Shown: piece by piece, positions 4,789-45,037 of the stretch
Layout of the letters: each line of letters starts with the position of its first letter
Position numbering within the stretch: the stretch's first letter is position 1
Source of the DNA: an uncultured Candidatus Saccharibacteria bacterium
GTDB taxonomy: Bacteria; Patescibacteriota; Minisyncoccia; Phycocordibacterales; UBA9973
Length of the DNA stretch: 64,000 nt
Assembly: GCA_964361705.1 (NCBI GenBank)
Contig: CAYIBP010000001.1
Span: 26,727 to 90,726, forward strand
Direction of reading: 5' to 3'
Program-made: the position numbers and the translations under genes
Notes under the pieces: model-generated
Seen by the model: the letters and a program-made list of their open reading frames with translations, nothing else
What the model was told of the DNA's origin: nothing
The model's database searches: none

Positions 4789-5349
4789 TTACAAATTAAA
4801 TGTCTTTTCTAACAAATCTCTATTTGTAATATCTTTCGCTAAAATAAAATGAACATATTTCGCTACTCCCCAATAATTTGCTATGAAATCAATTTCTTTT
4901 TGACACGGATACGGGTAAACCCAAACACTATCGTTGAATCGAATACAACCTAATTCTTTCATTTTTTCTCTTAAAGAATCTCTTGCTGGTTTCTTTTTTT
5001 CTGGAATATCAAAAACAATCACACGAAAAAACCTATCCCAAATCTTTGGGAATTTGAACTCCATGTTTTCATAGTTAAAACGCAAAAATATTTCTCTGCC
5101 ATTTTCTGTAAGAACAACTTTATGAAAGTCTCCTTCTTCCTTAAAACTTATAAAATTTAATTTTCTTAATTTTAAAAAATAATGTGGAATATTTTTTGGT
5201 TTTTTATTTAATCCGAAAATTTCTTTCACCAATATTTTAGTGATTTTGTAACTTGTTCTCCTATTAGACAAAGCAACAGCAATACCTATCCCCATTCCTA
5301 AAGCGCGAATTATCTTACCCGTATTTGATTCTTGATCTATTATTTTCAT
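4789..5349 (-). CDS. uncharacterised winged-helix + Cas2/VapD-like fold protein (paralog of 41081-41614)
   Basis: 186 aa. C-terminal block WDRFFRVIVFDIPEKKKPARDSLREKMKELGCIRFNDSVWVYPYP follows the Cas2 core pattern (hydrophobic-x-[YF]D[IL]... basic patch ... G-x-R-x-Q/N-SV[FW]). N-terminal helical/wHTH-like region. No CRISPR repeats nearby. Confidence 0.45.
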   Translation of the reverse strand: MKIIDQESNTGKIIRALGMGIGIAVALSNRRTSYKITKILVKEIFGLNKKPKNIPHYFLKLRKLNFISFKEEGDFHKVVLTENGREIFLRFNYENMEFKFPKIWDRFFRVIVFDIPEKKKPARDSLREKMKELGCIRFNDSVWVYPYPCQKEIDFIANYWGVAKYVHFILAKDITNRDLLEKTFNL

Positions 5350-5688: not shown

Positions 5689-7182
5689 TTATTTCTCCAA
5701 ATCCAAAATCTCATCAATGCGAATCTTGGCGACGAATTCTGGCACGTGAGACACTAAAATCAGAGCTCCCTTGTATTGATTCACAGCTTCGGCAATGATC
5801 GGAATATGGCGAAAATTTATATGGTTTGTCGGTTCATCTAAGATAAGCAATCCAGGACGCTCCAAAACTAAACGCGCAAAAGCCAGCAATCCTTTCTGCC
5901 CTTCTGACAAACTCCCAACTTTTGTATTCATTAATTCCGCGGTAATCAAAAAACTCGCTGCAGTCGCGCGCATTTTTTCTTCATAAAGAGGCACACCACC
6001 TGCGATCATCGCGCTAGCCAAGGATTGATACACGGTATGTTCAAAATTTAAAGTGGAAAAATCTTGTCTATAATATCCTACACGAATACCAGATAGTATC
6101 TGCGATCCTTCAGCTGTGTCGTTTGCCAAATGTTCGAGCAGAGTGCTCTTGCCTATGCCGTTTGGACCTTTCAAAAGTAAGTGTTGATTCTTTTTTAATT
6201 TTATATTTGCTTTGTGTTTTACGAGTTTACCGGTCTTTGCATTCATCGTGGAAAAAGATGTGATGGTAATGATATCTCCATTTATGTCCTCTTGTACTGG
6301 AATAGTAAAATCTCTGATTGTTTTATCTTCTTTTCTGACATCCACCATTTCTTCTTCGAGTTCTTCGGCTTTTTCACGCATTCTTTTTGCTACGAGACGA
6401 AGTTGTCCGCCTTTGTGAGCAAAGACATTTGACTGATCTTTTTTTGCTTGAATCTCTTTTGCCAGCTGAGCATTCTTCATGTTTTCTTTCTCCACTCGCG
6501 CGGTTATTTCTTTTAACACATTTTTATAGTTACCGACATATTGCTCTACTTTGCGAGTATGCACATCGAGATATAAAACACCGTCCGAAAAAGCATTTAA
6601 GAATTCTGCATCATGAGATATCACCACCATGGTCTTTTTATAATCAACCAAGAATTTTGTCAGGTGTAAAATACCGGCATGATCTAGATTATTTGTCGGC
6701 TCATCTAGTAAAAGTAAATCTGGATCCAAAATCAAAGCCGAGGCGAGTAGTATTCTAGCGAGCTGTCCGCCCGAAAAAGTGCCCAGTGTTTTATCGTGGA
6801 GTTTCGTATGACCTTTCAGATTTACCACTTCGAGAACCTCATCTATACGCGGATCTATGTCATAAATTTTCGTAGTAAAACCATTCTCAAGAAAAGATTT
6901 CTCAAAAAATTCTCGCACCGTCAACACTAGATCTTCTCTTGGTATCACTTGCTTTGCTGTAGCGATACTCAATTTATTATTCATAATAACCAGACCGGAT
7001 TCGGGCTTCAATACTCCACGCATAAGACCAAAGATTGTCGTCTTGCCTGCGCCGTTTTGCCCCATAATCGTGATTTTTGAACCTCTTCGCAAGGGGAAAT
7101 AAACCTCTTCTAAAATAGGTTTATTGGGCCCATGTTCAAATGAAACCTTGTCGAATCGCAAGATTACTTCTTCTTTTGCCAT
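5689..7182 (-). CDS. ABC-F family ATPase (two tandem ABC domains, no TMD)
   Basis: Two Walker A motifs (GQNGAGKTT; GPNGIGKST) and two signature motifs (FSGGQLARILLASAL; LSEGQKGLLAFARLVL), with a charged linker between domains. Architecture of ABC-F translation factors (EttA/Uup class). Confidence 0.85.
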   Translation of the reverse strand: MAKEEVILRFDKVSFEHGPNKPILEEVYFPLRRGSKITIMGQNGAGKTTIFGLMRGVLKPESGLVIMNNKLSIATAKQVIPREDLVLTVREFFEKSFLENGFTTKIYDIDPRIDEVLEVVNLKGHTKLHDKTLGTFSGGQLARILLASALILDPDLLLLDEPTNNLDHAGILHLTKFLVDYKKTMVVISHDAEFLNAFSDGVLYLDVHTRKVEQYVGNYKNVLKEITARVEKENMKNAQLAKEIQAKKDQSNVFAHKGGQLRLVAKRMREKAEELEEEMVDVRKEDKTIRDFTIPVQEDINGDIITITSFSTMNAKTGKLVKHKANIKLKKNQHLLLKGPNGIGKSTLLEHLANDTAEGSQILSGIRVGYYRQDFSTLNFEHTVYQSLASAMIAGGVPLYEEKMRATAASFLITAELMNTKVGSLSEGQKGLLAFARLVLERPGLLILDEPTNHINFRHIPIIAEAVNQYKGALILVSHVPEFVAKIRIDEILDLEK

Positions 7183-17222: not shown

Positions 17223-18173
17223 TTAGCTTATTTTTACCCCGACCTTTTCCTTAACTTCTTTCATTTTACTTGAAGCCACCAGTTTTGCTTTTTCGCTGCC
17301 TTGTTTTAAGATCTCAAAAACTCTCGGTATGTCTTTTTCAAGCCCTCTTCTCCTCTCTCGCATAGGCGCTATAAATTTCTCCAAATCTTCTATGAGCATT
17401 TCTTTCAATTCTTTGTATTTGCCTGCCTTACTCTCGTAAATAGCTAAAAGTTCTGGCGCGGAACGAAGCAGACTGTGTATCGCGTAAACATTCTTTGGGA
17501 TACCTTCGCCTGAGTCTGTAACTATGCCCATCACGCATTTTTTTATTTCTTCATATTCAGCAAAAAGAGGAATGGTATTGCCGTAGCTCTTTGACATCTT
17601 TCTGCCGTCGAGCCCAGGGACCACGGAGACATCTTGCAGAATTATTGGCTTTGGTAATTTAAATTCCTCGCTGTATGTGTTGTTAAACTTTTCTGCTATA
17701 TCACGCGCTATTTCCACATGTTGTTTTTGATCGGCTCCCACAGGCACAACATCAGTATCATAAAGCAAGATATCCGCCGCCATAAGTACTGGGTAATTAA
17801 AAGTCCCCACATCTATTTCTTTATTTTTTGCCTCGGCGTCTTTGAAGGCATGCGCTCGCATCAGAAAAGGCATCGTGGTGATGGTATCAAAAATCCAAGC
17901 GAGCTCTGTGTGTTCGGAAATACTGCTCTGTTGAAAAAAAGTAGCTTTTTCAGGATCGAGTCCAACAGCCAAGAAATCCAAGGTGACATTTATTATATTT
18001 TCCCGCATTTCTTTTGGTTTGCGTAAAGAATGAAGCGCATGATAATCCGCAATCATCATAAAACACTCATAATCGTCTTGCATATCTACGAGTTGTTTCA
18101 TCATGCTGAAATAATTGCCGATATGAGGCTTGCCAGAGGGCTGTATTCCCGATAAAAGTATTTTTTTGGGCAT
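17223..18173 (-). CDS. trpS: tryptophanyl-tRNA synthetase
   Basis: Class I aaRS with HIGH-type motif (GIQPSGKPHIGNYF) and KMSKS motif (RKMSKSYGNTI). Confidence 0.9.
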   Translation of the reverse strand: MPKKILLSGIQPSGKPHIGNYFSMMKQLVDMQDDYECFMMIADYHALHSLRKPKEMRENIINVTLDFLAVGLDPEKATFFQQSSISEHTELAWIFDTITTMPFLMRAHAFKDAEAKNKEIDVGTFNYPVLMAADILLYDTDVVPVGADQKQHVEIARDIAEKFNNTYSEEFKLPKPIILQDVSVVPGLDGRKMSKSYGNTIPLFAEYEEIKKCVMGIVTDSGEGIPKNVYAIHSLLRSAPELLAIYESKAGKYKELKEMLIEDLEKFIAPMRERRRGLEKDIPRVFEILKQGSEKAKLVASSKMKEVKEKVGVKIS

Positions 18174-18195
18174 ATGATTCTATATTAACACAAAA

Positions 18196-18310
18196 TGTAA
18201 AGTCAGGGAAATGCTATTTTTGGGTCGCTGTCTGGCGTTCCTACGCCAGCGCTGCCTCTCGGCCCGTCGGCCTGCGAGACACCCAAAAATAGCATTTCCC
18301 TGACTTTACA
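18196..18310. repeat. perfect 30-bp inverted repeat (tgtaaagtcagggaaatgctatttttgggt / revcomp) flanking a 55-bp GC-rich internally palindromic core
   Basis: Read directly. Arms 18196-18225 and 18281-18310 are exact reverse complements. Core (cgctgtctggcgttcctacgccagcgctgcctctcggcccgtcggcctgcgagac) is ~70% GC in a ~33% GC genome and contains sub-hairpins ctggcg/cgccag and ggcc/ggcc. Sits in the divergent trpS-dnaB intergenic region. Confidence 0.6.
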
Positions 18311-18362
18311 TTTCTCCACACTTTAATAACACCTTACCCACTTTTGTGGTTTTTGACATAGT

Positions 18363-19781
18363 TTGCACTGTGCTAAAATGCACTCAATGAAACAACAAAC
18401 AAGAAATGGTGATATACGCCTGCCCCCTCAACACACGACTTCTGAGCAAGCCGTTCTGGGTTCTATTATGCTCCGCAAAGATGCTGTACACGAAGTTGAA
18501 GACATGATAACTCCGGATTCTTTTTATGCTGAAAAAAATAAAATAATTTTTCAAGCGATGCTCGACCTGTCAATGAAAAGCGAACCGATAGATATGCTCT
18601 CGCTTTCTACTAAGCTAAGCGAACAAAAACTTTTAGAAAGAATAGGAGGCAATCAATATTTGGCAGAACTCGTAAATACTGTTCCCTCTTCCGCAAATAT
18701 AAAACACTACGCAAACATAGTACAAAAAAAATATGTACTGCGCAGTCTGATAGAAGCCGCAGATTATGTATCGGAACTGGCTTTTGAAGAAGGTGATGAT
18801 CATATGGACGATATTTTGGATCTAGCAGAAAAAAGAATGTTTAGCGTTGTGTCTTCGCCTAAAAATCAAAAATACACAAACTTGAAAGACGCATTGCCAG
18901 AAGCTTGGGAGAGACTCGAAAAACTGCATGAACACAAAGGCGCCTTGCGCGGACTGCCTACAGGATTCAAAGATCTGGATTCAATGCTTTCTGGATTACA
19001 AAATTCCGACCTCGTCATCTTGGCGGCAAGACCTTCAATGGGTAAGACCACGCTAGCTCTTGATATCGCCCGCATATCAGCCGTTACTCATGATAAATCT
19101 ATTTTAATATTCTCTCTTGAAATGTCTTCACAGCAACTTGTAGATAGAATGCTATCCGCTCAATCTCGTGTGAATGCTTGGAATTTGCGTACTGGGCACC
19201 TTTCTTCTGATCGAGATTTTTCACAACTCCGTGATTCTTTAGATAAACTTGCGAAAGCAAAAATATATATAGATGATCAACCAGGCAATTCTATAGTTAA
19301 AATGAAAGCTCTGGCTCGCAGATTAAAAGCTGAAAAAGGATTGGATTTGGTCGTGGTAGATTATCTTCAACTTATGACAACTTCCAAAAATTACGACTCT
19401 ATGGTCAACCAAGTTACTGAAATTTCTCGCTCTCTAAAAAGTTTAGCGAAGGAGCTTGATATACCGGTGCTTGCCCTTTCTCAGCTGTCTCGCGCAGTCG
19501 AATCCCGCGGAGGTAAACCTCGACTCTCTGATCTACGAGACTCTGGATCCATCGAACAAGATGCAGATGTGGTAATGTTTATACATAGAGAAGATAAAGG
19601 CAAAGATGAATCCGAACGCACGAACATCGCCGAAATATTGATAGAAAAACACAGAAACGGACCGACCGGCAAAGTGGATTTGTACTTTGACGAAAAAACT
19701 ACTACTTTCCTAAACCTTGAGAAAAGTAGTTTGAGTGAATTTTCTCAAGCAAAGGTCAGTGATGATTTGGAAGCATTTTAA
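18363..19781 (+). CDS. dnaB: replicative DNA helicase
   Basis: N-terminal DnaB domain (PPQHTTSEQAVLGSIM), Walker A (GKTT), RecA-like core, Walker B (DLVVVDYLQLM) and the ALSQLSR arginine-finger region. Exact start uncertain (several Met codons in first 10 residues). Confidence 0.9.
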   Translation: MHCAKMHSMKQQTRNGDIRLPPQHTTSEQAVLGSIMLRKDAVHEVEDMITPDSFYAEKNKIIFQAMLDLSMKSEPIDMLSLSTKLSEQKLLERIGGNQYLAELVNTVPSSANIKHYANIVQKKYVLRSLIEAADYVSELAFEEGDDHMDDILDLAEKRMFSVVSSPKNQKYTNLKDALPEAWERLEKLHEHKGALRGLPTGFKDLDSMLSGLQNSDLVILAARPSMGKTTLALDIARISAVTHDKSILIFSLEMSSQQLVDRMLSAQSRVNAWNLRTGHLSSDRDFSQLRDSLDKLAKAKIYIDDQPGNSIVKMKALARRLKAEKGLDLVVVDYLQLMTTSKNYDSMVNQVTEISRSLKSLAKELDIPVLALSQLSRAVESRGGKPRLSDLRDSGSIEQDADVVMFIHREDKGKDESERTNIAEILIEKHRNGPTGKVDLYFDEKTTTFLNLEKSSLSEFSQAKVSDDLEAF

Positions 19782-30136: not shown

Positions 30137-30186
30137 ATACCAAAGGTGCCCTTTCGCACCACAGTGCGAAAGGGCACCTTTGGTAT
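30137..30186. promoter_or_regulatory. perfect 23-bp-stem hairpin/palindrome ATACCAAAGGTGCCCTTTCGCAC-caca-GTGCGAAAGGGCACCTTTGGTAT
   Basis: Read directly; followed by a 10-bp direct repeat of cctttggtat. Lies between the stop of the GC-rich ORF 30324-30899 and the start of ORF 29733-30089, so it could be a terminator, an operator, or both. Confidence 0.5.
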
Positions 30187-31851: not shown

Positions 31852-33522
31852 CTAATAAACCTCCTGTTGGTAACAACTCTCGCAGTACACTATCTCTTTG
31901 TTCTCTGGTGAATAATTTGTATTTATTTCCTTTTTGCATTTATCACACTGTCGCTTCCAGAATTTATATGGTCCACGAATATTTATCCTTTCTTTATGTC
32001 TGCAATAAAAACATTTGCGCGGAATAGGCAGGATCATCTTTCTGTAAAACAAGAATTCTTGCGCTGTAATTTTATAATTCCTCTTGCAATCTATACAGGC
32101 AAGTACTTCAGCCAAAATACCATCCGTCACATCTTTTATATGGTCTGGTATTTGTTCTGATTGCACTGTTTCTTTGCCTTCCGTTTTCTGCAGATCATCC
32201 TCCCATCTAAAACCTTGCGCCAGCACTTCTTCTTTTGTCATCGGCATATTGTCCTGCCCTATCGTTTCATTATAAGCAAAGGGAGCAAGATCTGGGGGCA
32301 TCATTAAGCCATATAGATTTTTTGATTTTAATTCTTGTATGATTAGATTTTTTAACTTTTCATATTCTTCCTTGCTGTATTCTTTGTTGAATATGGCATA
32401 TTTAGTGTTTTTAAGCGCATCACATCCTACACAATCTTGGCAATTTGTAGTGTAAAAACAGTAAAGCATATTATTGCCATGCTCAAGACCATAAGAACCT
32501 ATAATATTGCTCGAATGCCCCACTGCCACTACTTCGAGCAATCTTTCGCAGGAGGTACCATAGCCTATGGTACCATAAGAATCTTTAATTTCTTTTGAAG
32601 AAAATAAATATCGGCAATCCTCACCTCTTGCCACCTCGAAAGAATCTTTGACGTTTTTACAGTTAAAAAGATAATCTCCAGAGGAATCTATACTTTTTGG
32701 ATCATTATTTTCTTTTACTGGATATTTCAAACATAAATCTTTAAACTCTTTTTTAAAAGATTTCGTTTTTGAGAAACTTCCTTGTATTTCTTTGACTTTG
32801 TTCCAGTATTCTTCTTGGGTATATGGTTCATTTAGAAAGTGATAAGACTTATTGTTTAAATTTACACAACCAAAGCAATTCATCACTCCCCTGCAATTTT
32901 GGACAAAAGCGCTATCCACCGATCCAAAAACATTTTTTCCCCATAGAATGCCCGAAGATTCTTGAACATTGACACTTTCATAACATCGTTCGGTTTTTGT
33001 GGCAAAATACATATCCGAACAATCCTTGATATCTTTCGCTCCTCTAGTATAGAGAGTTTCTTCGGCAGGCCCGGTATTGAAAACGAGATAGCAATTCTTG
33101 CATCCGCCTGCCATATTCGTATATTCGCTGTTTTGATTTGGTCCGTATCCAGAAGAAAGATATGTGGTGATCTTCGGTACTTTTATCAAAAATTCTTTCA
33201 TCTGCTCTAAAAAAGAATGGCTTGGGTCATAATCCATGGCGTAATCTTTTGGATCCCATTTGTCGGAATAAAAACATTCGTGACAATATATCTTGTAAGG
33301 AGATTTTGGATTGTACATCGATATTATGCTCTTGTCGCATAAATCACAACGTCTGCCTGAATAAAGAGTGGTTTCGTTTCTCCACAGCGCACGCATTTTA
33401 AATCTGCAAGACGGACAAACCTTTGGGTTCGGCACTTGCATCTTTTCATAAAAAGAAATTTCGTCCTGATCTAGAAAAAAATCAGTGAGGCATTTAGTGC
33501 ATTTTTTCGTTTCTGTACGCAT
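31852..33522 (-). CDS. cysteine-rich multi-zinc-ribbon protein, novel family, paralog A
   Basis: 556 aa, >45 Cys, no signal peptide. N-terminal module CxxC...FYEKMQVPNPKVCPSCR...RCDLCDKS...YCHECF. C-terminal module of the same pattern (CIDCKRNY...FYRKMILPIPRKCFYCR...QCDKCKKE...YCESCYQQEVY). Internal repeats C-x2-C-x-G-C...Y-x-KEEY. Paralogous to 35576-37288, 37255-39012 and 41611-43377. Confidence 0.6.
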   Translation of the reverse strand: MRTETKKCTKCLTDFFLDQDEISFYEKMQVPNPKVCPSCRFKMRALWRNETTLYSGRRCDLCDKSIISMYNPKSPYKIYCHECFYSDKWDPKDYAMDYDPSHSFLEQMKEFLIKVPKITTYLSSGYGPNQNSEYTNMAGGCKNCYLVFNTGPAEETLYTRGAKDIKDCSDMYFATKTERCYESVNVQESSGILWGKNVFGSVDSAFVQNCRGVMNCFGCVNLNNKSYHFLNEPYTQEEYWNKVKEIQGSFSKTKSFKKEFKDLCLKYPVKENNDPKSIDSSGDYLFNCKNVKDSFEVARGEDCRYLFSSKEIKDSYGTIGYGTSCERLLEVVAVGHSSNIIGSYGLEHGNNMLYCFYTTNCQDCVGCDALKNTKYAIFNKEYSKEEYEKLKNLIIQELKSKNLYGLMMPPDLAPFAYNETIGQDNMPMTKEEVLAQGFRWEDDLQKTEGKETVQSEQIPDHIKDVTDGILAEVLACIDCKRNYKITAQEFLFYRKMILPIPRKCFYCRHKERINIRGPYKFWKRQCDKCKKEINTNYSPENKEIVYCESCYQQEVY

Positions 33523-33526
33523 AATT

Positions 33527-35536
33527 TTATTCCAATATCTTTCTCAGCACATCTTCAGGCACTTCTTTTATTTTTGTCTTGGGTGTTTCTTCTTCTTTTA
33601 TTTCTTCTTTTTTTATATTTTTAGATTCTATAAAACTTTTCAATTTATCCATATCTTCTGCGCTCGCTGCGCGATCTTTTGATGATTTTTCTTTTTTAAT
33701 TATACTAGGTGCTTGTTCTTCTTTTAAAATACTCAGGGGCACGGGTGCATGCACAGCAGGTCTCACAAGGGTAACGAGGTCAGACTTTTTTTCTACTTCC
33801 TCTGATTTTACCTTTGATTCTTCTGCGATAGTTTTATTTAAAATATCCCTTAGAGCTGGGTTGCCATTTTCTGTACGAGCTATTTTTAGTTTGTTACCAG
33901 TAAACACCTTCTTCATTCTTGAAAATACACCCTCTCGCACAGGCGCTATATTCCTCGTCGTACTGTCTCTTTCTTCTTCTTTCTTGGGCTCGAATTCTAT
34001 ACCCAGATCGGCCAGTGGTTTATAAAACTTAGCATCATCTCTTTTGTTTTCTCTTGAAAAACCCGTAGCGACTTTTAATTCCCCTGTCTTTATTTTATCC
34101 ATACAATCCTTACAATACACAGGCCTGCCTGGCGTAGGCTTGAAAGGCACTGTGGTTTCTTTTTTGCAATTAGAACAAATGATCGGGAATTTCTCTCCGG
34201 TCATATTATCTCCATCATTGCCTAGAGACATTCCGCTCCAATCATTGATCTCTTGCTCCACTACTTCTCTTGGTCTGCAATACAGCGCGCGCGAAGACCT
34301 AATCACTTCTTGTTCTATCTCCTTGTTACCCGACTTTACTAAAGGCGATAAGGTCTTGGCTGAAAAAGGTCTCGATGTCGTACCATCAATCATAAGCTTC
34401 AAATAAATTTTGAAATTCGGTAAGTTTAAAATATCTTGCGGTGTGAATTCTGGCTCAAATTCTTTTTCCAAAAACTTTGCATCATCAGCGCCGACTCTGA
34501 AAACAATCATCGTGCCCACGTTGCCAAATACTGCATCTCGAACACTAGAATTCTTATCAGCTATCAACTGTGCCGTGTACTGATGGGCCACAGTCAAATT
34601 GAGTCTATATTTTCGAGCTTCAGACAAAATACCTGCAAAAGACTCCGTAACGAAATTTTGGAATTCATCAACATATAGATAGAAATCTTTTCTCTCGTCT
34701 TCGGGTATGCGCACACGTTCCATAGCGGCGAGCTGAATCTTGGTAATTATCATTCCCCCTAAAAGCGAAGAATTGTCTTCACCTATGCGCCCTTTTGATA
34801 CATTTACAAGAAATATTTTTTCTTGATTCATTAAATCAAAAATATCCACTGTGCTTTTAGCCTGACCAACGATATTTCTGATGATAGAGGTAGAAAGAAA
34901 CTGCCCAACTTTGTTTTGTATCGGCGCAATGGCTTCATTTCTAAATTTATCCTGCCAAGCTTCGTATTCGTGAATCCAGAATGCTTTAATAACAGGGTCC
35001 TTCAAGTTTGCTATTACCTTTTGACGATAATCTTTATCCACCAAGAGCCTCGGTATACCGAGCAATGTCGAACCTGGAGTATCAAGCAGTGCCAAGATAG
35101 CATTGTTCAAAATATATTCCATTCTGGCGCTCCAAGCATTTGCCCAAATCTTTGTGAAAATACCCATCAAACCCGAAGCTACGAGATGTTTATATTTTGG
35201 ATCCAAAAGTTCGAGAACATTAAAACCTATATGATACTCCGTATCAGCAGGATTGAAATACACCACATCTTTCATTCGATGTGGAGGAATAGCCGAGAGT
35301 ACTGCTTCGACATTTTCTCCGTGAGGATCAACCATACACACACCATCGCCATTTTCGATGTTCTGAATAATCATGTTGAACATCAGGGCGGATTTACCTG
35401 TACCGGATTTTCCAAGTATGTACACATGCTGACGGCGATCTTTACGCTTTATGCCAAAGAGAGTATTCTTGTCCCTATAAGTAGTCTGACCTACATAAGT
35501 AATCTCTTTATTTTTTGGGATTCCCAAGAGTTCCAT
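33527..35536 (-). CDS. soluble FtsK/HerA/VirD4-TraD-like P-loop ATPase, paralog 2, with C-terminal zinc ribbon and K/E-rich tail
   Basis: Walker A ILGKSGTGKSA, Walker B YLYVDEFQNF, LTVAHQY...GNVGTMIVFRVGADDA block. Extra C-terminal CSNCKKETTVPFKPTPGRPVYCKDC zinc ribbon followed by a ~200 aa lysine/glutamate-rich tail. No TM helices. Confidence 0.6.
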   Translation of the reverse strand: MELLGIPKNKEITYVGQTTYRDKNTLFGIKRKDRRQHVYILGKSGTGKSALMFNMIIQNIENGDGVCMVDPHGENVEAVLSAIPPHRMKDVVYFNPADTEYHIGFNVLELLDPKYKHLVASGLMGIFTKIWANAWSARMEYILNNAILALLDTPGSTLLGIPRLLVDKDYRQKVIANLKDPVIKAFWIHEYEAWQDKFRNEAIAPIQNKVGQFLSTSIIRNIVGQAKSTVDIFDLMNQEKIFLVNVSKGRIGEDNSSLLGGMIITKIQLAAMERVRIPEDERKDFYLYVDEFQNFVTESFAGILSEARKYRLNLTVAHQYTAQLIADKNSSVRDAVFGNVGTMIVFRVGADDAKFLEKEFEPEFTPQDILNLPNFKIYLKLMIDGTTSRPFSAKTLSPLVKSGNKEIEQEVIRSSRALYCRPREVVEQEINDWSGMSLGNDGDNMTGEKFPIICSNCKKETTVPFKPTPGRPVYCKDCMDKIKTGELKVATGFSRENKRDDAKFYKPLADLGIEFEPKKEEERDSTTRNIAPVREGVFSRMKKVFTGNKLKIARTENGNPALRDILNKTIAEESKVKSEEVEKKSDLVTLVRPAVHAPVPLSILKEEQAPSIIKKEKSSKDRAASAEDMDKLKSFIESKNIKKEEIKEEETPKTKIKEVPEDVLRKILE

Positions 35537-35575
35537 ATGTGTATATTATACAAGAAAAACAAGCTTTTACCATAT

Positions 35576-37288
35576 TTAGTATATTTCCTTCTGATAGCAA
35601 CTTTCACAATACACTATTTCTGGTCTATCTAGTGAATATGAGGTTTCAAATTCGTTAGAGCACCTTTCCTTCATGCATTTCCGATGCCATAGTTTTAAAG
35701 GATTGCGCGATTTCATCCTCCTATCATTCCGGCAGAAAAAACAATTCCTAGGCAAAGGTACCTGCATTCTCTTATAAAAAAGCAATTCTTGATTTGTAAT
35801 CTTAAAATTACGATCACAAGACCCACAAACCAGAACTTCGTTTATAATGTCTTCCACAACATCATTGATATCATCTGGTATGTTTTCTTGTGACATCGTT
35901 TCTTTGCCTACGGTACGTTTGAAATCATTCTGCCATTTCAAGCCACGAGCCTCTGCCTCGCTCTGTGTAAGAGGAAACATTGAGAGGGCCTCTGTTTCGT
36001 TGTAATTAAAATAAGACATTCGAGCGGGGAAAAATTCTCCCCACTCTTTTGTTTTTTTCATTAGCTCAATGATCTCATTTTTTAGTTTAAAATATTCTTC
36101 TTTTGTGTATCTTTTATTCAAAATTACATACTCTCCTTTTTTGACACTCGCACATCCAAAGATATTGTTGCACGAATGGCAATTGTCACAATAAGCAATA
36201 TCTTTATCCTTCCATGAATAAATACTAAAAAGATTATTATAAGATTGGTCTGGTGTTGCCGCCTCATAAGAATATTCCACCTCTCCACCACCGGACAAAT
36301 CGTAACAATCCTTAAACTTTACACCATTGTAGACGAATCTTGATTCCTCGCTAAACGGGGCAAAGAAAGAATCTCTGGTGTGTTTTGCCTCTATCAGATC
36401 ATTCCCCGTACAATTCAGACAATTACGAAACATCGCAAACCGACGCGGATATTTTAAAATAAATTCCTTAAACTCCTTCTCAGCCCTCTGCCAACCAGTA
36501 AAAGTATTCAAGGCGTAAGATTTCAAAATATCTTCATACTCTTCCTTGCTGTATTGTTTGTTACGAAAATAATATCTCTTGCTTCTCAAGCCAAAAGACA
36601 TAAAACAATCGCTACAATCACGACAGTCATAACAAAAATCACAGTTTTGTAGCGAATTACCATATATCACATATCTGCACTTATAACACTTATCAATCAA
36701 AATTGACTCGTACATGAATTCATTAAAATCATAAGCACCAAGACAATCGCACAGTTCCCTGCCCTCATTTAGAAAACAAGAATACATCACGCTCTCTAAT
36801 TTCCAAGAAATAAAAGTCATGTAACAATTTTTAGAAAATGCAACATCGTGACAATAAGGACTATTCATACTGGAAATACCATCATCGTTCATCAGGGCGA
36901 TCTTTGGCACTTTGTGATTTAGTTCCATGTACTGTTCAAAAAAAGATTTGTTCGGATCAAAATCCTGTCCGTATTTGTATGGATCCCAGTTGTCGTTCCA
37001 GAAACACTTGACGCAATAAACGACCAAATCAGAGTCAGGTTTGTAAATAGAAAGAGTGCTCTTGCCACACAGATCGCACGAACGATTGTACAGATTGTAT
37101 GTATTCCTCCAAGCCAACCTGCGTTGACTTCTACAATCTGGACAAAAAGTCGGGGGTGGCACTTTGATTTTTTCATAAAACCCAAAATCGTCAGATTCTA
37201 TAGTGAAATCTTTTTTACAGTTTTGACAATTGCGGGTTTCGGATTGCATATATTTTAATATACCTCTTTTTTGTAACAATCTTCGCAA
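35576..37288 (-). CDS. cysteine-rich multi-zinc-ribbon protein, novel family, paralog B
   Basis: 570 aa, same architecture as paralog A: N-term CQNCKKDF...FYEKIKVPPPTFCPDCRSQRR...CDLCGKS...YCVKCF; C-term CGSCDRNFKI...FYKRMQVPLPRNCFFCR...CSNEFETSYS...VYCESCYQKEIY. Confidence 0.6.
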   Translation of the reverse strand: MRRLLQKRGILKYMQSETRNCQNCKKDFTIESDDFGFYEKIKVPPPTFCPDCRSQRRLAWRNTYNLYNRSCDLCGKSTLSIYKPDSDLVVYCVKCFWNDNWDPYKYGQDFDPNKSFFEQYMELNHKVPKIALMNDDGISSMNSPYCHDVAFSKNCYMTFISWKLESVMYSCFLNEGRELCDCLGAYDFNEFMYESILIDKCYKCRYVIYGNSLQNCDFCYDCRDCSDCFMSFGLRSKRYYFRNKQYSKEEYEDILKSYALNTFTGWQRAEKEFKEFILKYPRRFAMFRNCLNCTGNDLIEAKHTRDSFFAPFSEESRFVYNGVKFKDCYDLSGGGEVEYSYEAATPDQSYNNLFSIYSWKDKDIAYCDNCHSCNNIFGCASVKKGEYVILNKRYTKEEYFKLKNEIIELMKKTKEWGEFFPARMSYFNYNETEALSMFPLTQSEAEARGLKWQNDFKRTVGKETMSQENIPDDINDVVEDIINEVLVCGSCDRNFKITNQELLFYKRMQVPLPRNCFFCRNDRRMKSRNPLKLWHRKCMKERCSNEFETSYSLDRPEIVYCESCYQKEIY

Positions 37289-39012
37289 TAAAGCATGTTA
37301 TACCCTTCTTCTAGGTTAAACACAGACTCTATCTTTTTATTGCATTTTTTACAAGAAGTCTGATATTTTTTGGCAGTCAAAAACATGGCGAGTTCTTCTT
37401 GCATGCGTATCATCGGATGCGTGTCCGGTAGCGGAATTTTCATTTTTCTTAGAAATTGAAGTTCAGATTGGATAATCCTAAACGGTCTGCCTGTGACTTT
37501 ACACTCTATGGCTTTTTCCACAATATCATCATTCACATCATCTATATATTTTGGTATATCTGCATTCGTCAGTATTTGTTCGTTTGATATATTGGTTTCT
37601 GGCTCCTCGGCTATATAACCACCTAGTTTTATAATTTGTTCCTCACTCAAAGGGAAAACAATTTGGCTCAATGAAAAATTGTATGCTTGAGCAGAAAATT
37701 CCATACCTAAACCATCGCCATACTCGCCTATCTTTAACATTTCATATTTAATTTTATCCAGTAGTTTATAATATTCTTCTGCAGAATATTGTTTATTCAA
37801 AATACAATAGGATTTATCCCTTAAACCAAAACACATAAAACAATTGCTCAAATTACTGCAATTAAAAACAAATTCGCAATCAAGAAGTATTTTTGAATGT
37901 GAAGAAAATTTCACATTGCTGGAATGATTGCCAGTATTTATAGTGCTATACAACAAACTGGAATGCCCTCCAGAAAACAGCGTATCCATAGAATCATTCA
38001 GAAAAAAACTTCCATCTATATGCCGTACATTTTCTGTGTCTTTTGAAGCAGTAGCATCAAAAATATTTTTAGCATCTCTGAGCAACACACCATTACAATT
38101 TTCTATGTTTGTATTAGCAGAAGCATTTATTGGCGAAGATTTAACGAGCAACCAAAATTTATCTTCCATATCTTTTATTTTCTCTCGCGACAGAGGATAA
38201 ATGGATTTGATAAAATCTTTGTATTCTTTTTCCGAAAGTTGTTTATTCCAAACACAATATTTCGCATTTCTAAGGTTCACTGAACCAAAACACTTGTCAC
38301 AGTTTCGACATCCAAATAAAAATATACTATCTGTGCAATCTTTTGAAAAATAAACAAAAGAAGATTTATAAATATGATCAGAATAAACACTACCATAAAC
38401 ATGATCAGATTCATCTATAACTCTGGAATCCATGCCGTCTTTGACTTTATTCATTGAATTGCAATACCAAAGATTTTCAGAAAAAAAGCAACCTGTCACA
38501 TAATAACCATTCTTTAGGTTTCTACCGCCATTTGAATATTCACTATTTATTGTCGAAGGATCTTTGTTTAGAAAAGATGGCATGGGAAAAACTTTTCGAA
38601 GCGCAAAAAGTATAGCCAAAGGACTTGCGCCGTCCTTGTACTCCAAGCCAAAAGAAAAAGCATCGAAACTATCACCCATAAAATATTTATAATCATAAAC
38701 AGGAAAAGGACACTCTTTCGGAAATATAGATATCATTGATTCGTTGTGGTTAGATACATTGCAAGATCTTTTAAAAAGTCGGGAGCTATCTTTTTGTGTT
38801 AATCTTCTGATTCTCCTACAAGTAGGACAAAAGTTTGGAGCTGGAACTCGAAGCATTTTTAAAAATTCTATATCGCCTTTTGATATTTCAAACTCTCCCT
38901 CGCAGTGTATATGCAAACCCGCCCATCTGCAAACACGAGAGTGAGGAGTAAGATTTGCCAAAATTTCGTCTAGCAACTTATCAAATCTGGGTGTTTTTGA
39001 CACTGATTGCAT
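37255..39012 (-). CDS. cysteine-rich multi-zinc-ribbon protein, novel family, paralog C (most divergent)
   Basis: 585 aa; internal CRNCDKCFG...KEY and CSNLSNCFMCFGLRDKSYCILNKQYSAEEY repeats; C-terminal ...KKCNKKIESVFNLEEGYNMLYCEDCYKKEVY. N-terminal module degenerate (HxxC...CPTCRR). Confidence 0.55.
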   Translation of the reverse strand: MQSVSKTPRFDKLLDEILANLTPHSRVCRWAGLHIHCEGEFEISKGDIEFLKMLRVPAPNFCPTCRRIRRLTQKDSSRLFKRSCNVSNHNESMISIFPKECPFPVYDYKYFMGDSFDAFSFGLEYKDGASPLAILFALRKVFPMPSFLNKDPSTINSEYSNGGRNLKNGYYVTGCFFSENLWYCNSMNKVKDGMDSRVIDESDHVYGSVYSDHIYKSSFVYFSKDCTDSIFLFGCRNCDKCFGSVNLRNAKYCVWNKQLSEKEYKDFIKSIYPLSREKIKDMEDKFWLLVKSSPINASANTNIENCNGVLLRDAKNIFDATASKDTENVRHIDGSFFLNDSMDTLFSGGHSSLLYSTINTGNHSSNVKFSSHSKILLDCEFVFNCSNLSNCFMCFGLRDKSYCILNKQYSAEEYYKLLDKIKYEMLKIGEYGDGLGMEFSAQAYNFSLSQIVFPLSEEQIIKLGGYIAEEPETNISNEQILTNADIPKYIDDVNDDIVEKAIECKVTGRPFRIIQSELQFLRKMKIPLPDTHPMIRMQEELAMFLTAKKYQTSCKKCNKKIESVFNLEEGYNMLYCEDCYKKEVY

Positions 39013-39024
39013 AAAGATATCATA

Positions 39025-39057
39025 GCAAAAAACCTCGTAAATTACGAGGTTTTTTGC
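39025..39057. terminator. intrinsic terminator hairpin gcaaaaaaCCTCGTaaattACGAGGttttttgc downstream of dnaK
   Basis: Perfect 14-bp stem (including A/T extensions) with T-run, read from sequence. Lies between the dnaK stop (39073) and the start of Cys-rich paralog C (39012) on the reverse strand. Confidence 0.55.
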
Positions 39058-39072
39058 TGAAGTTTGAGATTT

Positions 39073-40977
39073 TTATTTTTTATCCTCCCCTTCTTTAAAT
39101 TCCACATCGTGAACTTCTGGTGGTTGTTCTTCGGCAGTAGTCCCCGTATTAGGATTTGCCTGTCCTGCTTCAGCATTAGCTTTCTGCATGGCTTCGCCTA
39201 TTTTTGACATTTCAGCAGAAAGCTCTTCGGTTGCTTTCTTTATTTTCTCTCCATCAGTACCATCTTTTACTTCTTTCAAACCAGCGATCTTTTTATTCAC
39301 ATTTTCTTTTACATCTGCTGGAAGTTTTGCCTCATTGTCTTTTAGAGCTTTCTCCGCAGTGTACATCATCATCTCTGCAGTATTTTTCACATCAACCAAC
39401 TCTCTCTTTTTCTTGTCTTCCTCTGCGTGAACCTCTGCATCTTGCTGCATTTTCTTTATATCTTCATCTTTGAGTCCAGAGCTTGCCTCTATTCTGATAG
39501 ATTGAGTTTTACCGGAAGCTTTTTCCATGGCTTTCACATTCAATATTCCATTTGCATCTATGTCAAAAGTTACTTCGACTTGAGGCATACCACGTGGAGC
39601 AGGTGGTACACCGTCTAGCACAAAGCGACCGAGGGATTTGTTGTCGGACGCCATTGGACGCTCACCTTGAACTACGTGTATCTCTACAGAAGTCTGATTG
39701 TCTGCGGCGGTAGAAAATACTTGAGATTTTGAAGCAGGGATTGTAGTATTTTTTTCTATCAACTTTGTAGCCACACCTCCCAATGTCTCAATACCCATAG
39801 ATAGAGGTATGACATCCAAGAGCAAGACATCTCGTACATCTCCTGCTAGCACTCCACCCTGGACAGCCGCGCCGAGCGCCACGACTTCGTCTGGGTTGAT
39901 AGACATATTTGGTGTTTTACCAAAAAGATTTTTCACAGCTTCCACCATCATCGGCATTCTGGTCTGACCTCCGACCATGATGATCTCGTTTATTTCATTC
40001 ATTTTGAAAGGAGAAGCTTCCACAGCTCTCTTTGTAATCTCAATAGATCTATCCACGAATTCTTTTGCCAAAGATTCCAATGTCGCGCGAGACATCTTGA
40101 GTAACAAGTGCTTTGGCCCTTCGGCATCAGAAGTAATAAAAGGAATATTTACTTCCGCTTCCATCGTGGTAGAGAGTTCATGTTTCGCCTTTTCAGCTGC
40201 TTCTTTCAGTCTCTGTAATGCGAGTGAATCTTTACGCACATCCACGCCTGATTCCTTTTTGTACTCATCTGCTATCCAATCAATGATCTTGCTATCTATG
40301 TCTTCACCACCCATATGACTGTCGCCATCAGTAGATTTTACTTCGATTACATCTTCTCCTATTTCAAGCACCGACACATCGAATGTTCCACCACCGAAGT
40401 CATATACCACAATCTTTTCATTTTTCTTTTTATTAAAACCATAGGCAAGCGCTGCCGCGGTAGGCTCGTTTATTATTCTCTTTACATCAAGACCGGCTAT
40501 TTGTCCGGCATCTTTTGTCGCCTTTCTTTGCGCGTCGTTGAAATACGCAGGCACAGTGATCACCGCTTCGGTAATCTTAACACCAAGCTTTGCTTCTACA
40601 TCAGCTTTTATTTTCTGCAAGATCATCGCGGAAACTTCTTCAGGACGATAAAACTTGTCGAGCATTTTTACTTTTACACCACCATCTTCACCCGCTTCTA
40701 TTTCGTAAGGAGCGCTCCCTTTGTCTTTTTGAACTCCTGGATCGCTGAACAGATGACCCATAAAACGCTTGATGCCGTAAATGGTATTTTTAGGATTCGT
40801 GACTGCTTGCCTCTTTGCCACTTGTCCCACCACACGACCTCCGCTTTTTGTAATAGCAACTATCGAAGGCGTGGTCCTGTTGCCCTCGACATTTTCAATA
40901 ATCTTTGGCGCGCCACCCTCAATGATAGACACCGCCGAATTTGTTGTACCCAAATCTATTCCTATTATTTTACTCAT
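39073..40977 (-). CDS. dnaK: chaperone DnaK (Hsp70)
   Basis: [33 protein letters not shown] motifs and C-terminal lid with EEVD-like acidic tail. Confidence 0.95.
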
Positions 40978-41017
40978 ATTCTTAATATATTATTAATAAT
41001 GCTTGATAATTAAAGAT

Positions 41018-41053
41018 TTAGCAGGCTTTTCGCGGTCGCAAAAAACTTGCTAA
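41018..41053. promoter_or_regulatory. imperfect CIRCE-like palindrome TTAGCAggcttttcgc-ggtc-gcaaaaaacTTGCTAA in dnaK upstream/divergent promoter region
   Basis: Outer half-sites TTAGCA / TGCTAA match CIRCE half-sites (TTAGCACTC-N9-GAGTGCTAA), but spacer and inner arms differ. Located 41-76 bp upstream of the dnaK start. Confidence 0.35.
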
Positions 41054-41080
41054 AAACAGTATATATGATAAGATATCCAC

Positions 41081-41614
41081 ATGTCAAGCAAATCTGGATA
41101 TTCCAGTAAAATACTTAAAATATTGGCTGAAAAACCGGCACTTTCTCTGGAAGCTGTAAAAGAAAACTCGAACAAAAAAGACAAAAGAGAAGAGTATTCT
41201 TTAAACAGATCTGTCAAAAGTCTCACTGAAGCCGGCTGTGTTGAAATAATACGCTCAGAACACAAGGATTATTTACGACTCACTAAAAAAGGAAAAAATA
41301 GATTGAATAGTTTGCGTATCGGAGACACAGATGCCTTGGTACCACAAACTTGGGATGGGTTTTGGCGAATTGTGATATTGGATTTACCCGAAGACAGAAA
41401 AAACGAACGCGAATCTTTGCGATACCTTTTGAAAAAAGCAAACTTCGTTTGTGTGAAAAATACTGTTTGGATTTCGCCACACCCATACGAACATCTTTTT
41501 ACAAATATAAAAAAAGATTTAGGACTCTCTACAGAAATGATGATAATAACGACAAACAACCTAGATGAAGAAACTCATAAAGCATTCCTCAAAGAGATAG
41601 GTGGGCAATCTTAA
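41081..41614 (+). CDS. uncharacterised winged-helix + Cas2/VapD-like fold protein (paralog of 4789-5349)
   Basis: 177 aa; WDGFWRIVILDLPEDRKNERESLRYLLKKANFVCVKNTVWISPHP aligns with the C-terminal block of 4789-5349. Divergently transcribed from dnaK. Confidence 0.45.
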   Translation: MSSKSGYSSKILKILAEKPALSLEAVKENSNKKDKREEYSLNRSVKSLTEAGCVEIIRSEHKDYLRLTKKGKNRLNSLRIGDTDALVPQTWDGFWRIVILDLPEDRKNERESLRYLLKKANFVCVKNTVWISPHPYEHLFTNIKKDLGLSTEMMIITTNNLDEETHKAFLKEIGGQS

Positions 41615-43377
41615 TACACTTCCCTTTTATAACATTCTTCGCAATAAACTTTTTCGGTTCTGTCTGGAGAATACGGAGTTTCAAATTCGTTTGAGCATTT
41701 TTGATCGTGTCCGTGAGTGGTATTATCGCAAACACAAACTCTGTGCCATAAATTCCTAGGCGTGCGAAGCTTTTGTCTCTCTAAATATCTGCAATCAGGA
41801 CAAAATTCTGGTATCGGAACACTCATTCTTTTGTATAAATCGAATTCAGCTAAAACAATGTTGTAATTTTTGCTACATTTTTTGCAAGCAAGAACTTCTT
41901 TTGTTATTGTATCTGGCGTATTTGAAATACTATCAGGCAAAGTCTTTAAAGTTTCTTTACCAAAAGTACCTCCCAAATCATCTGCCCATTTAAAACCCTT
42001 CTCTAAAGTGTCTTCTTTAGTCAGTGGCATATATACATTGCCCTGCGTTTCGTTGTAACAAATAGGTGAATACTTCGGCGGGAAAAATTCTCCCCATTCG
42101 CCTGTATTCTTCATATGTTCTTTTATCTTTTGTACAAGTTTTTCATATTCTTCTTTGGTGTATTGCTTGTTGAATATACAATAAGAATTCTTTTTCAAGG
42201 CTACGCACCCGAAAAGATTTTGACCGTTGTGACAAGAATCGCAATAATACGCAAAAGTATTGTCGTAGGACAAATTGCAAGAAATCAGGTTAGATGAGCG
42301 CACTATCGCGTGAGAATTATACACGAGTTCTGTTTGTAGCCCCACATGATACACATCCATACAATCTTTTGTATCTGGAGACATCGCAGCAAAATGCACA
42401 TTTTCAGCTCGCTCTATATCAAACACCCTTTTGGAATTCTTGGAATTTAGCACAATATTGCCTGTGCAATCCACCGACTTATCTATCACAGCACACCTGT
42501 GCACCGCCTTTTGTTTTATCATATTTATATACTCCGCGTATAATTTATCTCGCGTAGCTCTGGAACCCAGATACATTTCTTCCATTTTTTTCTTATAGTC
42601 TTCTCTCGTGTATTGTTCATTATTTATACAGTAACTCTTATTGCGCAAGTTGTAACACATAAAACAATTTGAGCAATTCCTGCAATCATAAGAATAAAAA
42701 CAATCAGAACAATCCTTTAAAAACTTTCCGTACTGGCAATTGTAAAGATTCTCTCCATCTATACATTCATAACACATCGAGATATTCATAGGGTTGTAAA
42801 GGCAATCCACGCAGTCTCTGCCCTTCTCCCAAGTATTTGTACAGTAGAGCATATTTTCGCAATTGAACATGCAAAAAGACAGGTAGCAATCTTTATTGTC
42901 GCCAGCGTGATTTGTATAGTCAGAGTTAATAGTATTCTTATTGAGCAAAGCTATCCTCGGACACTCTAGTAACAGATCATAAAACTGTTCAAAAAATGGT
43001 TTTGTAAAATCAAAATCGCGCCCATAGTCAAGCGCGCTCCATTTGTCGCTCCAAAAACACGAAGTGCAAAAAACCTTAAAAGGCTTATCTGGAGAATACA
43101 CTGTCACTATAGACTTGTTGCATAAATTGCACACACCCCTATACAGCCTCCTTTCATTCCTAAAAGCATATCTGATCTGTTGCCTGCAATCAGGGCATTT
43201 GTCCGGCACCGGCACATCCATCTTTTTATAAAAAGCAAAATGATCCGGCTCGATGGTAAAGCTAGCCTTGCAACTCTGACAAGTCGCGGACACTGAGTTT
43301 GACGAATGTGTTTTAGTTTCCTGTTTCTCCATTGTATTCAAAAACATTGACGCGTGCTGGACGCAAAACTCTTTCAC
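41611..43377 (-). CDS. cysteine-rich multi-zinc-ribbon protein, novel family, paralog D
   Basis: 588 aa; N-term CQSCKASF...FYKKMDVPVPDKCPDCR...CNLCNKS...FCTSCF; C-term CKKCSKNYNI...LYKRMSVPIPEFCPDCR...CSNEFETPYS...VYCEECYKREVY. The 5' end overlaps the grpE 3' end, so the true start is probably an internal Met (MEKQETK). Confidence 0.6.
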   Translation of the reverse strand: MKEFCVQHASMFLNTMEKQETKTHSSNSVSATCQSCKASFTIEPDHFAFYKKMDVPVPDKCPDCRQQIRYAFRNERRLYRGVCNLCNKSIVTVYSPDKPFKVFCTSCFWSDKWSALDYGRDFDFTKPFFEQFYDLLLECPRIALLNKNTINSDYTNHAGDNKDCYLSFCMFNCENMLYCTNTWEKGRDCVDCLYNPMNISMCYECIDGENLYNCQYGKFLKDCSDCFYSYDCRNCSNCFMCYNLRNKSYCINNEQYTREDYKKKMEEMYLGSRATRDKLYAEYINMIKQKAVHRCAVIDKSVDCTGNIVLNSKNSKRVFDIERAENVHFAAMSPDTKDCMDVYHVGLQTELVYNSHAIVRSSNLISCNLSYDNTFAYYCDSCHNGQNLFGCVALKKNSYCIFNKQYTKEEYEKLVQKIKEHMKNTGEWGEFFPPKYSPICYNETQGNVYMPLTKEDTLEKGFKWADDLGGTFGKETLKTLPDSISNTPDTITKEVLACKKCSKNYNIVLAEFDLYKRMSVPIPEFCPDCRYLERQKLRTPRNLWHRVCVCDNTTHGHDQKCSNEFETPYSPDRTEKVYCEECYKREVY

Positions 43378-43966
43378 CCAGCTTGTAACCCTTTTGAATC
43401 ACTACGGAAATTTTATGATTGTCTTCTTGTTTATCGGTAGCAGTAATATCCATAGATTGATGAAGATTTGGATCAAAATCCTCGCCCACACGACCTATCT
43501 CTTTCACACCATATTCTTCAAAAATAGTATTGAGTTGAGAGTAAATATATTCCACTCCCTTGCGCCAATTTTGATCTACTTTTTCCCATGCTTCTTTGTT
43601 GGCAAAAGCCATATTAAAACTATCAATCACGGACAAAAATCTGGTCAACATGCGCTCACGCATAGCTTCTGAGAAGACTGCTTTTCTGTCTTCCTCTTGT
43701 TTCTTGAAATTCGCAAAATCTGCCCGCTCTTTCTGCCAACCTGTCAAATATTCTTCTTTTTCAGATTTTACCTGTTTCAGATCAGCTCGCAATTTCTTGA
43801 TAGTCTTTTTCAAGTCTTCTTCGCCGTCTTCATTGAACTCGAATTCGAGCACCTCTGTATCATCAGAAACACCAGAGGCGCCATCATCTGTTTCTTTCCC
43901 CTCTCCCGCGGGAGAAGAGCTTTGTATTTCATCGTCTGTTATTTCCTTAGAATCTTCGTCTGCCAT
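43313..43966 (-). CDS. grpE: nucleotide exchange factor GrpE
   Basis: 217 aa: acidic N-terminus, long paired helix, C-terminal beta domain (…HQSMDITATDKQEDNHKISVVIQKGYKLGERVLRPARVNV). Confidence 0.9.
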   Translation of the reverse strand: MADEDSKEITDDEIQSSSPAGEGKETDDGASGVSDDTEVLEFEFNEDGEEDLKKTIKKLRADLKQVKSEKEEYLTGWQKERADFANFKKQEEDRKAVFSEAMRERMLTRFLSVIDSFNMAFANKEAWEKVDQNWRKGVEYIYSQLNTIFEEYGVKEIGRVGEDFDPNLHQSMDITATDKQEDNHKISVVIQKGYKLGERVLRPARVNVFEYNGETGN

Positions 43967-43975
43967 ACAAGCATA

Positions 43976-44022
43976 TTAACACAAAAATCCCTCTTTTTTC
44001 AAGAGGGATTTTTGTGCGTTAA
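43976..44022. promoter_or_regulatory. extended CIRCE-like inverted repeat TTAACACAAAAATCCCTC-N9-GAGGGATTTTTGTGCGTTAA immediately upstream of grpE
   Basis: Read directly. 18/20-bp arms with 9-nt spacer (ttttttcaa). Outer and inner bases follow CIRCE (TTAGCAC..CTC-N9-GAG..GTGCTAA), with an 8-bp AAAAATCC/GGATTTTT insertion in each arm. Starts 10 bp upstream of the grpE ATG. Confidence 0.55.
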
Positions 44023-45028: not shown

Positions 45029-45037
45029 ACAAGCATA

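Follow-up and report, generated by a model that had tools for sequence, protein, structure and literature searches.

Between trpS and dnaB of a patescibacterial (Paceibacteria/Nomurabacteria-like) genome, a short GC-rich sequence is enclosed by two long inverted arms, raising the question of whether it serves the genes beside it or came from elsewhere. The first-pass annotation of the 64-kb stretch of DNA analysed here (the window) had offered three candidates: a MITE-like mobile element, a structured RNA or riboregulator in the dnaB leader, or a protein-binding site near the replication genes. Our analysis points to mobility of another kind: the element probably belongs, as a copy lying between genes, to a hairpin family dispersed through Patescibacteria, whose members are non-coding, mobile and about 90–125 bp long, with hosts among the Paceibacteria/Parcubacteria and relatives. 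It consists of the following parts.

18193–18313, no strand assigned, 121 bp: whole palindromic element (arm–core–arm)
18193–18225, plus strand, 33 nt, 33% GC: left arm, AAATGTAAAGTCAGGGAAATGCTATTTTTGGGT
18281–18313, plus strand: right arm, exact reverse complement of the left arm
18226–18280, plus strand, 55 nt, 72.7% GC: core, forming the three-way-junction tip
18227–18255, plus strand: core hairpin 1, with the tip stem-loop CTGGCG-TTCCTA-CGCCAG at 18232–18249
18256–18278, plus strand: core hairpin 2, CTC-T-CGGCC-CGTC-GGCC-T-G-C-GAG, taken from the fold

The inverted repeat is perfect, as first described, with arms of 33 bp rather than 30 bp. Folded as a single strand, the element forms a 33-bp stem topped by a three-way junction, which bears out the earlier picture of a long stem with a branched GC-rich tip; both nested hairpins named at that stage (CTGGCG-TTCCTA-CGCCAG and GGCC-CGTC-GGCC) appear in the minimum-energy fold, whereas the outer GTCT...AGAC pairing is absent from it. 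The fold energy is −76.5 kcal/mol for the plus strand and −82.8 kcal/mol for the minus strand. None of 200 shuffled controls is as stable (z of about −14), and no other 130-nt stretch of the window folds as stably (runner-up, −59.2). The core, first put at about 70% GC, has 72.7%; the window as a whole has 37.2%, not the 33% first given for the genome. The family-defining core sequence is CGCTGTCTGG-N8-CCAGCGCTGCCTCTCGGCCCGTCGGCCTGCGAGAC, and in the left arm the inner ~15 nt (..TATTTTTGGGT) are semi-conserved family-wide, the outer portion being specific to each copy. A covariance model, R1, scores the element at 105 bits on the plus strand versus 19 bits on the minus strand.

The element is no assembly artefact, because two other Hainich groundwater samples, assembled separately, yielded contigs in which it is identical base for base (L001 and L002); a third contig (L003) ends within it. 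The flawless 33-bp stem suggests that this copy is probably young or recently ‘corrected’. A repeat search and the covariance model found no second copy in the window. As separate observations, the second most stable local fold of the window is formed at 30137–30186 by a 23-bp inverted repeat without mismatches around a loop of 4 nt (ATACCAAAGGTGCCCTTTCGCAC/GTGCGAAAGGGCACCTTTGGTAT), and a 70-nt direct repeat (43955–44024 and 45017–45086, 97% identical), each copy of which includes the terminator-like palindrome AAAAATCCCTCTTTTTTCAAGAGGGATTTTT, flanks an ORF at 44066–44710. Three tandem paralogous units of ~4 kb, 72–93% identical, occupy 46000–58100; their products are very large and include a lipase/esterase (LCAT-like) domain, and the region has (AAAT)n microsatellites at 50062–50102 and 54392–54432. 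Four paralogous genes for proteins of ~560–670 amino acids with a treble-clef zinc finger lie within 31852–43377, interleaved with dnaK (39073–40977) and grpE (43313–43966); one of the four (33527–35536) has a TraG/VirD4-like coupling-protein ATPase domain.

The neighbours had been named correctly as trpS and dnaB, and the sequence around the element carries several conserved motifs.

17223–18173, minus strand: trpS, tryptophan-tRNA ligase, 316 aa (PF00579), its ATG 20 nt from the element
18387–19781, plus strand: dnaB, replicative helicase, 464 aa as called on public contigs (PF00772, PF03796)
18182–18192, minus strand: extended −10-like motif for trpS, TGTGTTAATAT, conserved in relatives (alignment of four)
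18353–18379, plus strand: dnaB promoter-like motif TTGACA-15 nt-TGcTAAAAT, downstream of the element and ~8 nt before the ATG
18312–18331, minus strand: conserved block TGTTATTAAAGTGTGGAGAA, holding a second extended −10-like motif and the DnaA-box-like TGTGGAGAA

The intergenic region measures 213 bp here versus 107, 95 and 113 bp in three relatives (L020, L023 and L026, respectively), whose TrpS proteins are 86, 81 and 78% identical to that of the window. In an alignment, all three keep the divergent dnaB–trpS order and the flanking promoter motifs and lack the element, which stands in place of a short variable spacer between the conserved dnaB-side and trpS-side motifs. Because the orthologous site is empty in these relatives, the element is a lineage-specific insertion in the dnaB–trpS divergent promoter region. 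The block at 18312–18331 is present in the empty-site relatives and is thus host sequence abutting the element; in the alignment this conserved minus-strand block reads TGTTATTAAAGTGTGGAGAAA, contains the DnaA-box-like and extended −10-like motifs, and occurs in the window and all three relatives. On the plus strand, the DnaA-box-like TTCTCCACA matches the DnaA-box consensus, TTATCCACA, at 8 of 9 positions.

These motifs bear on what the insertion might do to its neighbours. The dnaB promoter-like block CATTTTAGCA, with TTGACA/TGnTAAAAT, is conserved in four of four sequences (the window and the three relatives) and went unlisted by a promoter scan because its spacer is 15 nt. It lies downstream of the element, which therefore falls outside any dnaB leader, and the idea of a riboregulator there is not supported. 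On the other side, TGTGTTAATAT stops ~8 nt before the trpS ATG, so that the trpS mRNA, judging from the sequence, would be leaderless-like; the −35 region of this motif is now taken up by the element. For trpS and dnaB alike, the −10-like motifs end only ~7–8 nt before the ATG, without a Shine–Dalgarno sequence, an arrangement kept in the relatives that suggests leaderless mRNAs for both genes. The insertion would leave both proximal −10 elements intact while pushing upstream sequence 121 bp away, and a trpS-sense transcript started further upstream would carry a very stable hairpin followed by UUUUGUGUU. Upstream of trpS, a search for a Trp-rich leader peptide returned only a 17-codon ORF without a Trp codon. 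At this locus the element is most likely neutral cargo.

A host palindrome or cruciform that binds a repressor or replication protein for dnaB and/or trpS would suit a site between two divergent promoters and beside a DnaA-box-like motif. Its distribution largely refutes this: the element is missing in relatives that keep all other promoter motifs, and the same core lies at other intergenic sites and inside the unrelated coding sequences of Tgt, TsaD, UvrB, UvrD and Def. We therefore give this reading, which had appeared early on as a binding site for the replication genes, almost no probability.

Copies elsewhere were found by searching metagenome contigs with an exact 20-mer from the core, which gave 34 loci. 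About 17 carry the whole 55-nt core, almost unchanged, between locus-specific inverted-repeat arms, and fold to −47 to −93 kcal/mol; the other 17 are chance matches in GC-rich coding DNA. The core is thus shared almost base for base by copies in many other genomes, and the arms (18–34 bp) differ at each locus yet stay complementary. Their inner ~15 nt are semi-conserved (TTTTnnGGGGT / ACCCCnnAAAA), and conservation across the family is lowest in the terminal 10–18 bp. When 15 copies are aligned, 91.8% of cells pair, versus 77.5% in shuffled and 35–47% in slid controls; double-sided changes affect 16 pairs overall, and 13 of 16 arm pairs covary. In hairpin 1, three apical pairs show double-sided changes with no unpaired cells, and hairpin 2 is invariant or compensated in other copies (for example, GGCT/AGCC in L063). 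Strong structural selection, suggested early on from composition, is supported in this way at the family level.

A covariance model built from the aligned copies found one further, more-diverged copy (L040:5825–5912), so the exact-20-mer search sampled only part of the family. Because copies were found with an exact 20-mer, the hyper-conservation of the core is partly ascertainment. Intergenic copies are those of the window, L029/L052, L040, L041, L057 and L058, at sites that include the upstream regions of a LexA-like gene and of rpoB and the 3′ side of ftsW. The copies on L060 and L061, contigs of one sample with similar coverage and GC, may be two in one genome.

Searches beyond these contigs gave little. 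In Rfam, with E values up to 10, the best match to the locus was mir-2831, a generic long hairpin (49.6 bits versus a gathering threshold of 90). The remaining matches, with four other copies searched as well, were also generic or due to chance (VR-RNA; CPEB3 at 19 bits), and no known family explains the element at the locus or at those copies. BLAST against plasmids and phages gave nothing past a 34-nt chance match, arm and core patterns had no match in IMG/VR, and an arm 22-mer had none in metagenome and viral collections. The hairpin-1 18-mer matched GTDB genomes 15 times, about the chance expectation and never with the element; most fall within genes of GC-rich genomes, such as a MurE-like gene matched over 25 nt (L013). 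The repeat ctgtagggCTGGCGTTCCTACGCCAGCcatggcgggcatgggaatgcccgccctacag, REP-like and from one GC-rich MAG under the label Candidatus Hebobacteria (L007:3867–3930, L009:3681–3756 and L019:~270–320), contains the same 18-mer, probably by coincidence, because the number of 18-mer matches is near chance expectation. A peptide word search with both insert peptides, at an index threshold of three shared 5-mers, gave no candidates, and HMMER with the window-encoded peptide, a query too short, returned only the short ORFs P0121 and P0122 from 1.84 billion representatives. A full-text literature search, covering mostly journals outside subscription, found no such elements described for Patescibacteria, and the family is apparently undescribed to date.

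The family data also speak to the canonical MITE, an internally deleted insertion sequence moved by a DDE transposase acting on terminal inverted repeats. Some features fit: the element is small and non-coding, its inverted repeats start with TG and end with CA, and empty sites exist. Against it, the ends vary more from copy to copy than any other part of the element, and the arm 22-mer occurs nowhere else in the metagenome and viral collections. Target-site duplications are not consistent, the candidate CACA being already present twice in empty sites, and no transposase lies nearby among the 10 window ORFs scanned. The earlier suggestion of a MITE-like element thus stands as regards acquisition and mobility, with an empty site in relatives and the core at many unrelated genomic places, but not as regards a canonical MITE, with arms that differ at every locus and no clean target-site duplication; we consider the latter decidedly improbable.

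Ten copies lie within genes, each read straight through by a long ORF, in host proteins confirmed by Pfam.

TsaD: L030, L053
Tgt: L033, L046, L061, L063, L065
UvrD-type helicase: L051
UvrB: L060
Peptide deformylase (Def): L038

Both orientations occur among them, with one fixed stop-free frame per orientation: the core plus strand encodes GSLSG..ALPLGPSACETP and the minus strand encodes GVSQADGPRGSAG..DSDP, no other frames being seen. When the geometry is worked out (33 + 55 + 32 nt), the two frames used are exactly those interconverted by inversion in place. Members of the family can thus reside in-frame in essential genes, and are filtered for doing so. Among the Tgt copies, core identity is 0.82–1.0 versus 0.36–0.68 at flanking Tgt third codon positions, and therefore the core is maintained, or propagated, as nucleotide sequence. 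In an AlphaFold model of a Tgt with the insert, only moderately confident overall (mean pLDDT 65.6), insert residues 214–243, with pLDDT below 50, form a coil between a helix and the LFGIVQ strand; the genic copies are probably translated as extra, disordered peptide loops. Two observations on Tgt stand apart: a second low-confidence segment in Paceibacteria Tgt (P0123 residues 94–133, model m27929cc21f20; ..KDISKITKITDPSLMIPERFDDSDAPRLAKIG..) has the look of an insertion specific to the lineage and conserved in sequence, with no relation to the hairpin elements, and L046 encodes at 2376–2672, ~1.8 kb downstream of its element-bearing Tgt gene, a class A bacterial RNase P RNA (105 bits).

Comparison of sister sequences gives a length difference of 102 and 111 nt between Tgt alleles with and without the insert, and the arms are part of the inserted DNA. 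No clean target-site duplication was found in these pairs, and none is consistent over 15 copies. A few host codons abutting the insert have shifted towards complementarity (AGGAGG to AGCTGG and, opposite, CAAGCT to CCAGCT; L063 versus L064), and an outward ‘creep’ of the palindrome into the host flank is possible. We also considered whether the outer arms are an inverted duplicate of the host flank, made by a fold-back template switch. The L063–L064 codon changes partly hint at this, but it is contradicted by UvrB of L060, in which both 33-nt arms are clearly inserted.

In-frame residence also weighs on the idea of an RNA-level intervening sequence, either intron-like or excised by RNase III with re-ligation, whose long stem joins the junctions. 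The base of the stem does juxtapose the flanks, and the insertions affect essential, conserved genes at sites that adjoin conserved motifs (Tgt LFGIVQGG, UvrB DESH), as do those of homing introns and inteins. However, all 10 genic DNA copies and all insert-bearing Tgt proteins are in-frame and stop-free, which would be unnecessary if the insert were spliced; with both orientations in use, one RNA structure could not be presented in every host mRNA; and intergenic copies occur too. We hold this reading to be highly improbable.

The Tgt site is a hot spot for more than one kind of insert. In a set of 118 close Tgt homologues from Paceibacteria, the loop between WAERSLxEHxK and FGIVQGG has at most 14 residues and no recognisable insert in 19 (mostly 7–9 aa, for example LGGEQAL), a short form colinear with E. 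coli Tgt. The present element occupies it in 46 of the 118, more often in orientation A (31) than in orientation B (15). Others carry at least six unrelated insert families, at times two in tandem; examples among P0123–P0242 are HGSHSNLNVVNESNIAYAEES, ALRHSHSVLEGQD..SEDS, FSSLRPSPSERDPRGQKI and QSLGPSLRSATPSEKH. On a neighbour-joining Tgt tree the insert states are intermingled, sister sequences often being unlike, which therefore indicates rapid turnover or repeated targeting. The two other insert families inspected as DNA are both long hairpins: the UvrB gene of L060 holds an other-family hairpin with 21-bp perfect arms at 2564–2710, and the UvrD gene of L051 holds two copies of another-family hairpin, at 6019–6144 and 5158–5283.

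The arms of the copies also carry a strand signal. Across 16 independent copies the arms form 402 Watson–Crick pairs, and 15 arm mismatches are compatible with G·U/G·T pairing on the core minus strand versus 2 on the plus strand (17 informative mismatches; binomial p of about 0.002 by our own calculation, from few events). Another 16 mismatches are of other kinds, 7 of them a recurrent C/U 6–9 nt from the core. About 15 nt out from the core, one particular arm has a 1-nt bulge 12 times and the other arm twice. Since host transcription crosses copies in either orientation, the asymmetry belongs to the element itself, and the wobble and bulge biases together hint at a single-stranded intermediate. 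The pattern suggests that one strand folds as the functional intermediate; in the window this would be the minus strand, the trpS-sense strand.

A rival reading is a genuine structured RNA, small or cis-regulatory, for example a 5′ leader or attenuator of trpS or a free-standing minus-strand sRNA whose functional domain would be the conserved core. The strong covariation, the three-way junction kept across copies, G·U-compatible mismatches mostly on one strand, and high GC within an AT-rich genome, typical of structured RNAs, all fit, as does the placement of an extended −10-like TGTTATTAA just upstream on the trpS-sense strand and of UUUUGUGUU after the stem. Against this stand the lack of any Rfam match, the absence of the element at the same locus in three relatives, and the other copies inside ORFs, in both orientations to transcription, in-frame and stop-free; moreover, 33 consecutive Watson–Crick pairs with no G·U have the look of a DNA palindrome rather than of an evolved RNA stem. 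We regard an RNA function of this kind as improbable.

The preferred reading, a dispersed mobile hairpin family, would have the element be non-autonomous and selfish. The family would be defined by its structure and core, terminal repeats not being decisive, and for that reason it would probably be moved in trans by a core-binding enzyme that acts on the folded core, possibly in single-stranded form. Several points tell against it. No target-site duplication, defined ends or candidate transposase was found; the scan of 10 window ORFs returned no transposase and no RAYT or Y1 HUH gene. The source genome shows only one copy in ~75 kb (the window plus L068/L069), and other contigs one per 12–21 kb. 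A fixed core with diverging arms is unusual for selfish repeats and would also suit a functional RNA or DNA structure, and the strand asymmetry depends on 17 informative mismatches.

A bolder version, which we think unlikely though worth stating, is that these elements form a new class. A folded single strand (core minus) would present a three-way-junction ‘head’ for recognition atop a long, freely co-evolving stem. The element would home to loops by ultra-conserved motifs (Tgt LFGIVQGG, UvrB DESH, TsaD, Def), flip in place in-frame and swap with other hairpin ‘cassettes’ at the hot spot, driven by a putative CPR enzyme. If so, an enzyme of CPR bacteria would act on an element specified by structure. 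The conserved tip, co-varying arms, asymmetry, flipping and shared hot spot offer a handle for finding a structure-specific mobilisation mechanism. The broader implications concern reduced genomes. Streamlined, ultra-small CPR genomes appear to be colonised by selfish hairpin DNA even within essential genes such as Tgt, TsaD, UvrB, UvrD and Def, and hairpin inserts would explain why CPR housekeeping proteins vary in length and have ‘disordered loops’. The striking parallel to Rickettsia suggests that this is a general feature of reduced genomes. The findings also counsel caution: GC-rich, strongly covarying hairpins in AT-rich genomes need not be ncRNA genes.

Comparison with known systems places the family among short hairpin repeats. 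MITEs (Correia/NEMIS, RUP, ERIC, Nezha) resemble it in size, non-coding character, inverted-repeat termini, occasional in-frame insertion and possible promoter effects. MITEs, however, keep conserved ends that correspond to those of a parent insertion sequence, and are flanked by target-site duplications; here both conserved termini and target-site duplications are absent. Mitochondrial GC clusters, double-hairpin elements and repetitive hairpin-forming elements make up another group, with an example in sponge mtDNA (PMC2800124). Yeast and Allomyces have such elements too. Like our family, these are short GC-rich hairpin or double-hairpin modules that invade compact AT-rich genomes, coding regions included, with no known enzyme, but they are organellar, shorter and without long AT-rich arms, and the likeness does not imply homology. 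Integron attC sites share recognition of a folded single strand, a variable stem and an extrahelical base that marks one strand. In attC the base of the stem (the R″/R′ core sites) is conserved, the tip varies, and the sites flank gene cassettes next to intI. None of these latter features appeared here: the arms end AAATGTAAAG / CTTTACATTT, not RYYYAAC / GTTRRRY, and copies lie in housekeeping genes.

REPs are selfish hairpin repeats thought to be moved single-stranded by HUH tyrosine transposases, some of them lying within replication and repair genes (PMC3733652). Our family likewise consists of selfish repeats that form hairpins, and its strand asymmetry would be consistent with movement through a single-strand intermediate. 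REPs measure 20–40 nt and have a GTAG or CGTC tag at one end, and in REPINs the arms are conserved and the loop variable (PMC3733652); our family has the reverse architecture, with a conserved tip and variable arms, and so departs from the REP/REPIN definition.

The Rickettsia palindromic elements (RPEs; Ogata et al. 2000 Science) are, as summarised in PMC10969869 and PMC3733652, palindromic repeats of ~100–150 bp in several families, inserted in-frame in housekeeping genes. In both cases palindromes of ~100–150 bp, in several families, inhabit small, AT-rich, reduced genomes, with many copies in-frame in unrelated housekeeping genes, others intergenic, and no associated transposase known. The present element is itself a stable palindromic hairpin found both in-frame in unrelated genes and between genes. 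It differs in that the tip (core) is conserved while the arms diverge and co-vary, in that both orientations occur at one site and in that a single Tgt hot-spot loop hosts many families; the CGTC tag reported for one RPE end occurs here only in the loop of hairpin 2 and at no end of the element. The host phylum is Patescibacteria, and the likeness, judged by description, is one of kind and not of family membership. On this comparison, the best reading is that the element behaves most like Rickettsia palindromic elements and intragenic REPs.
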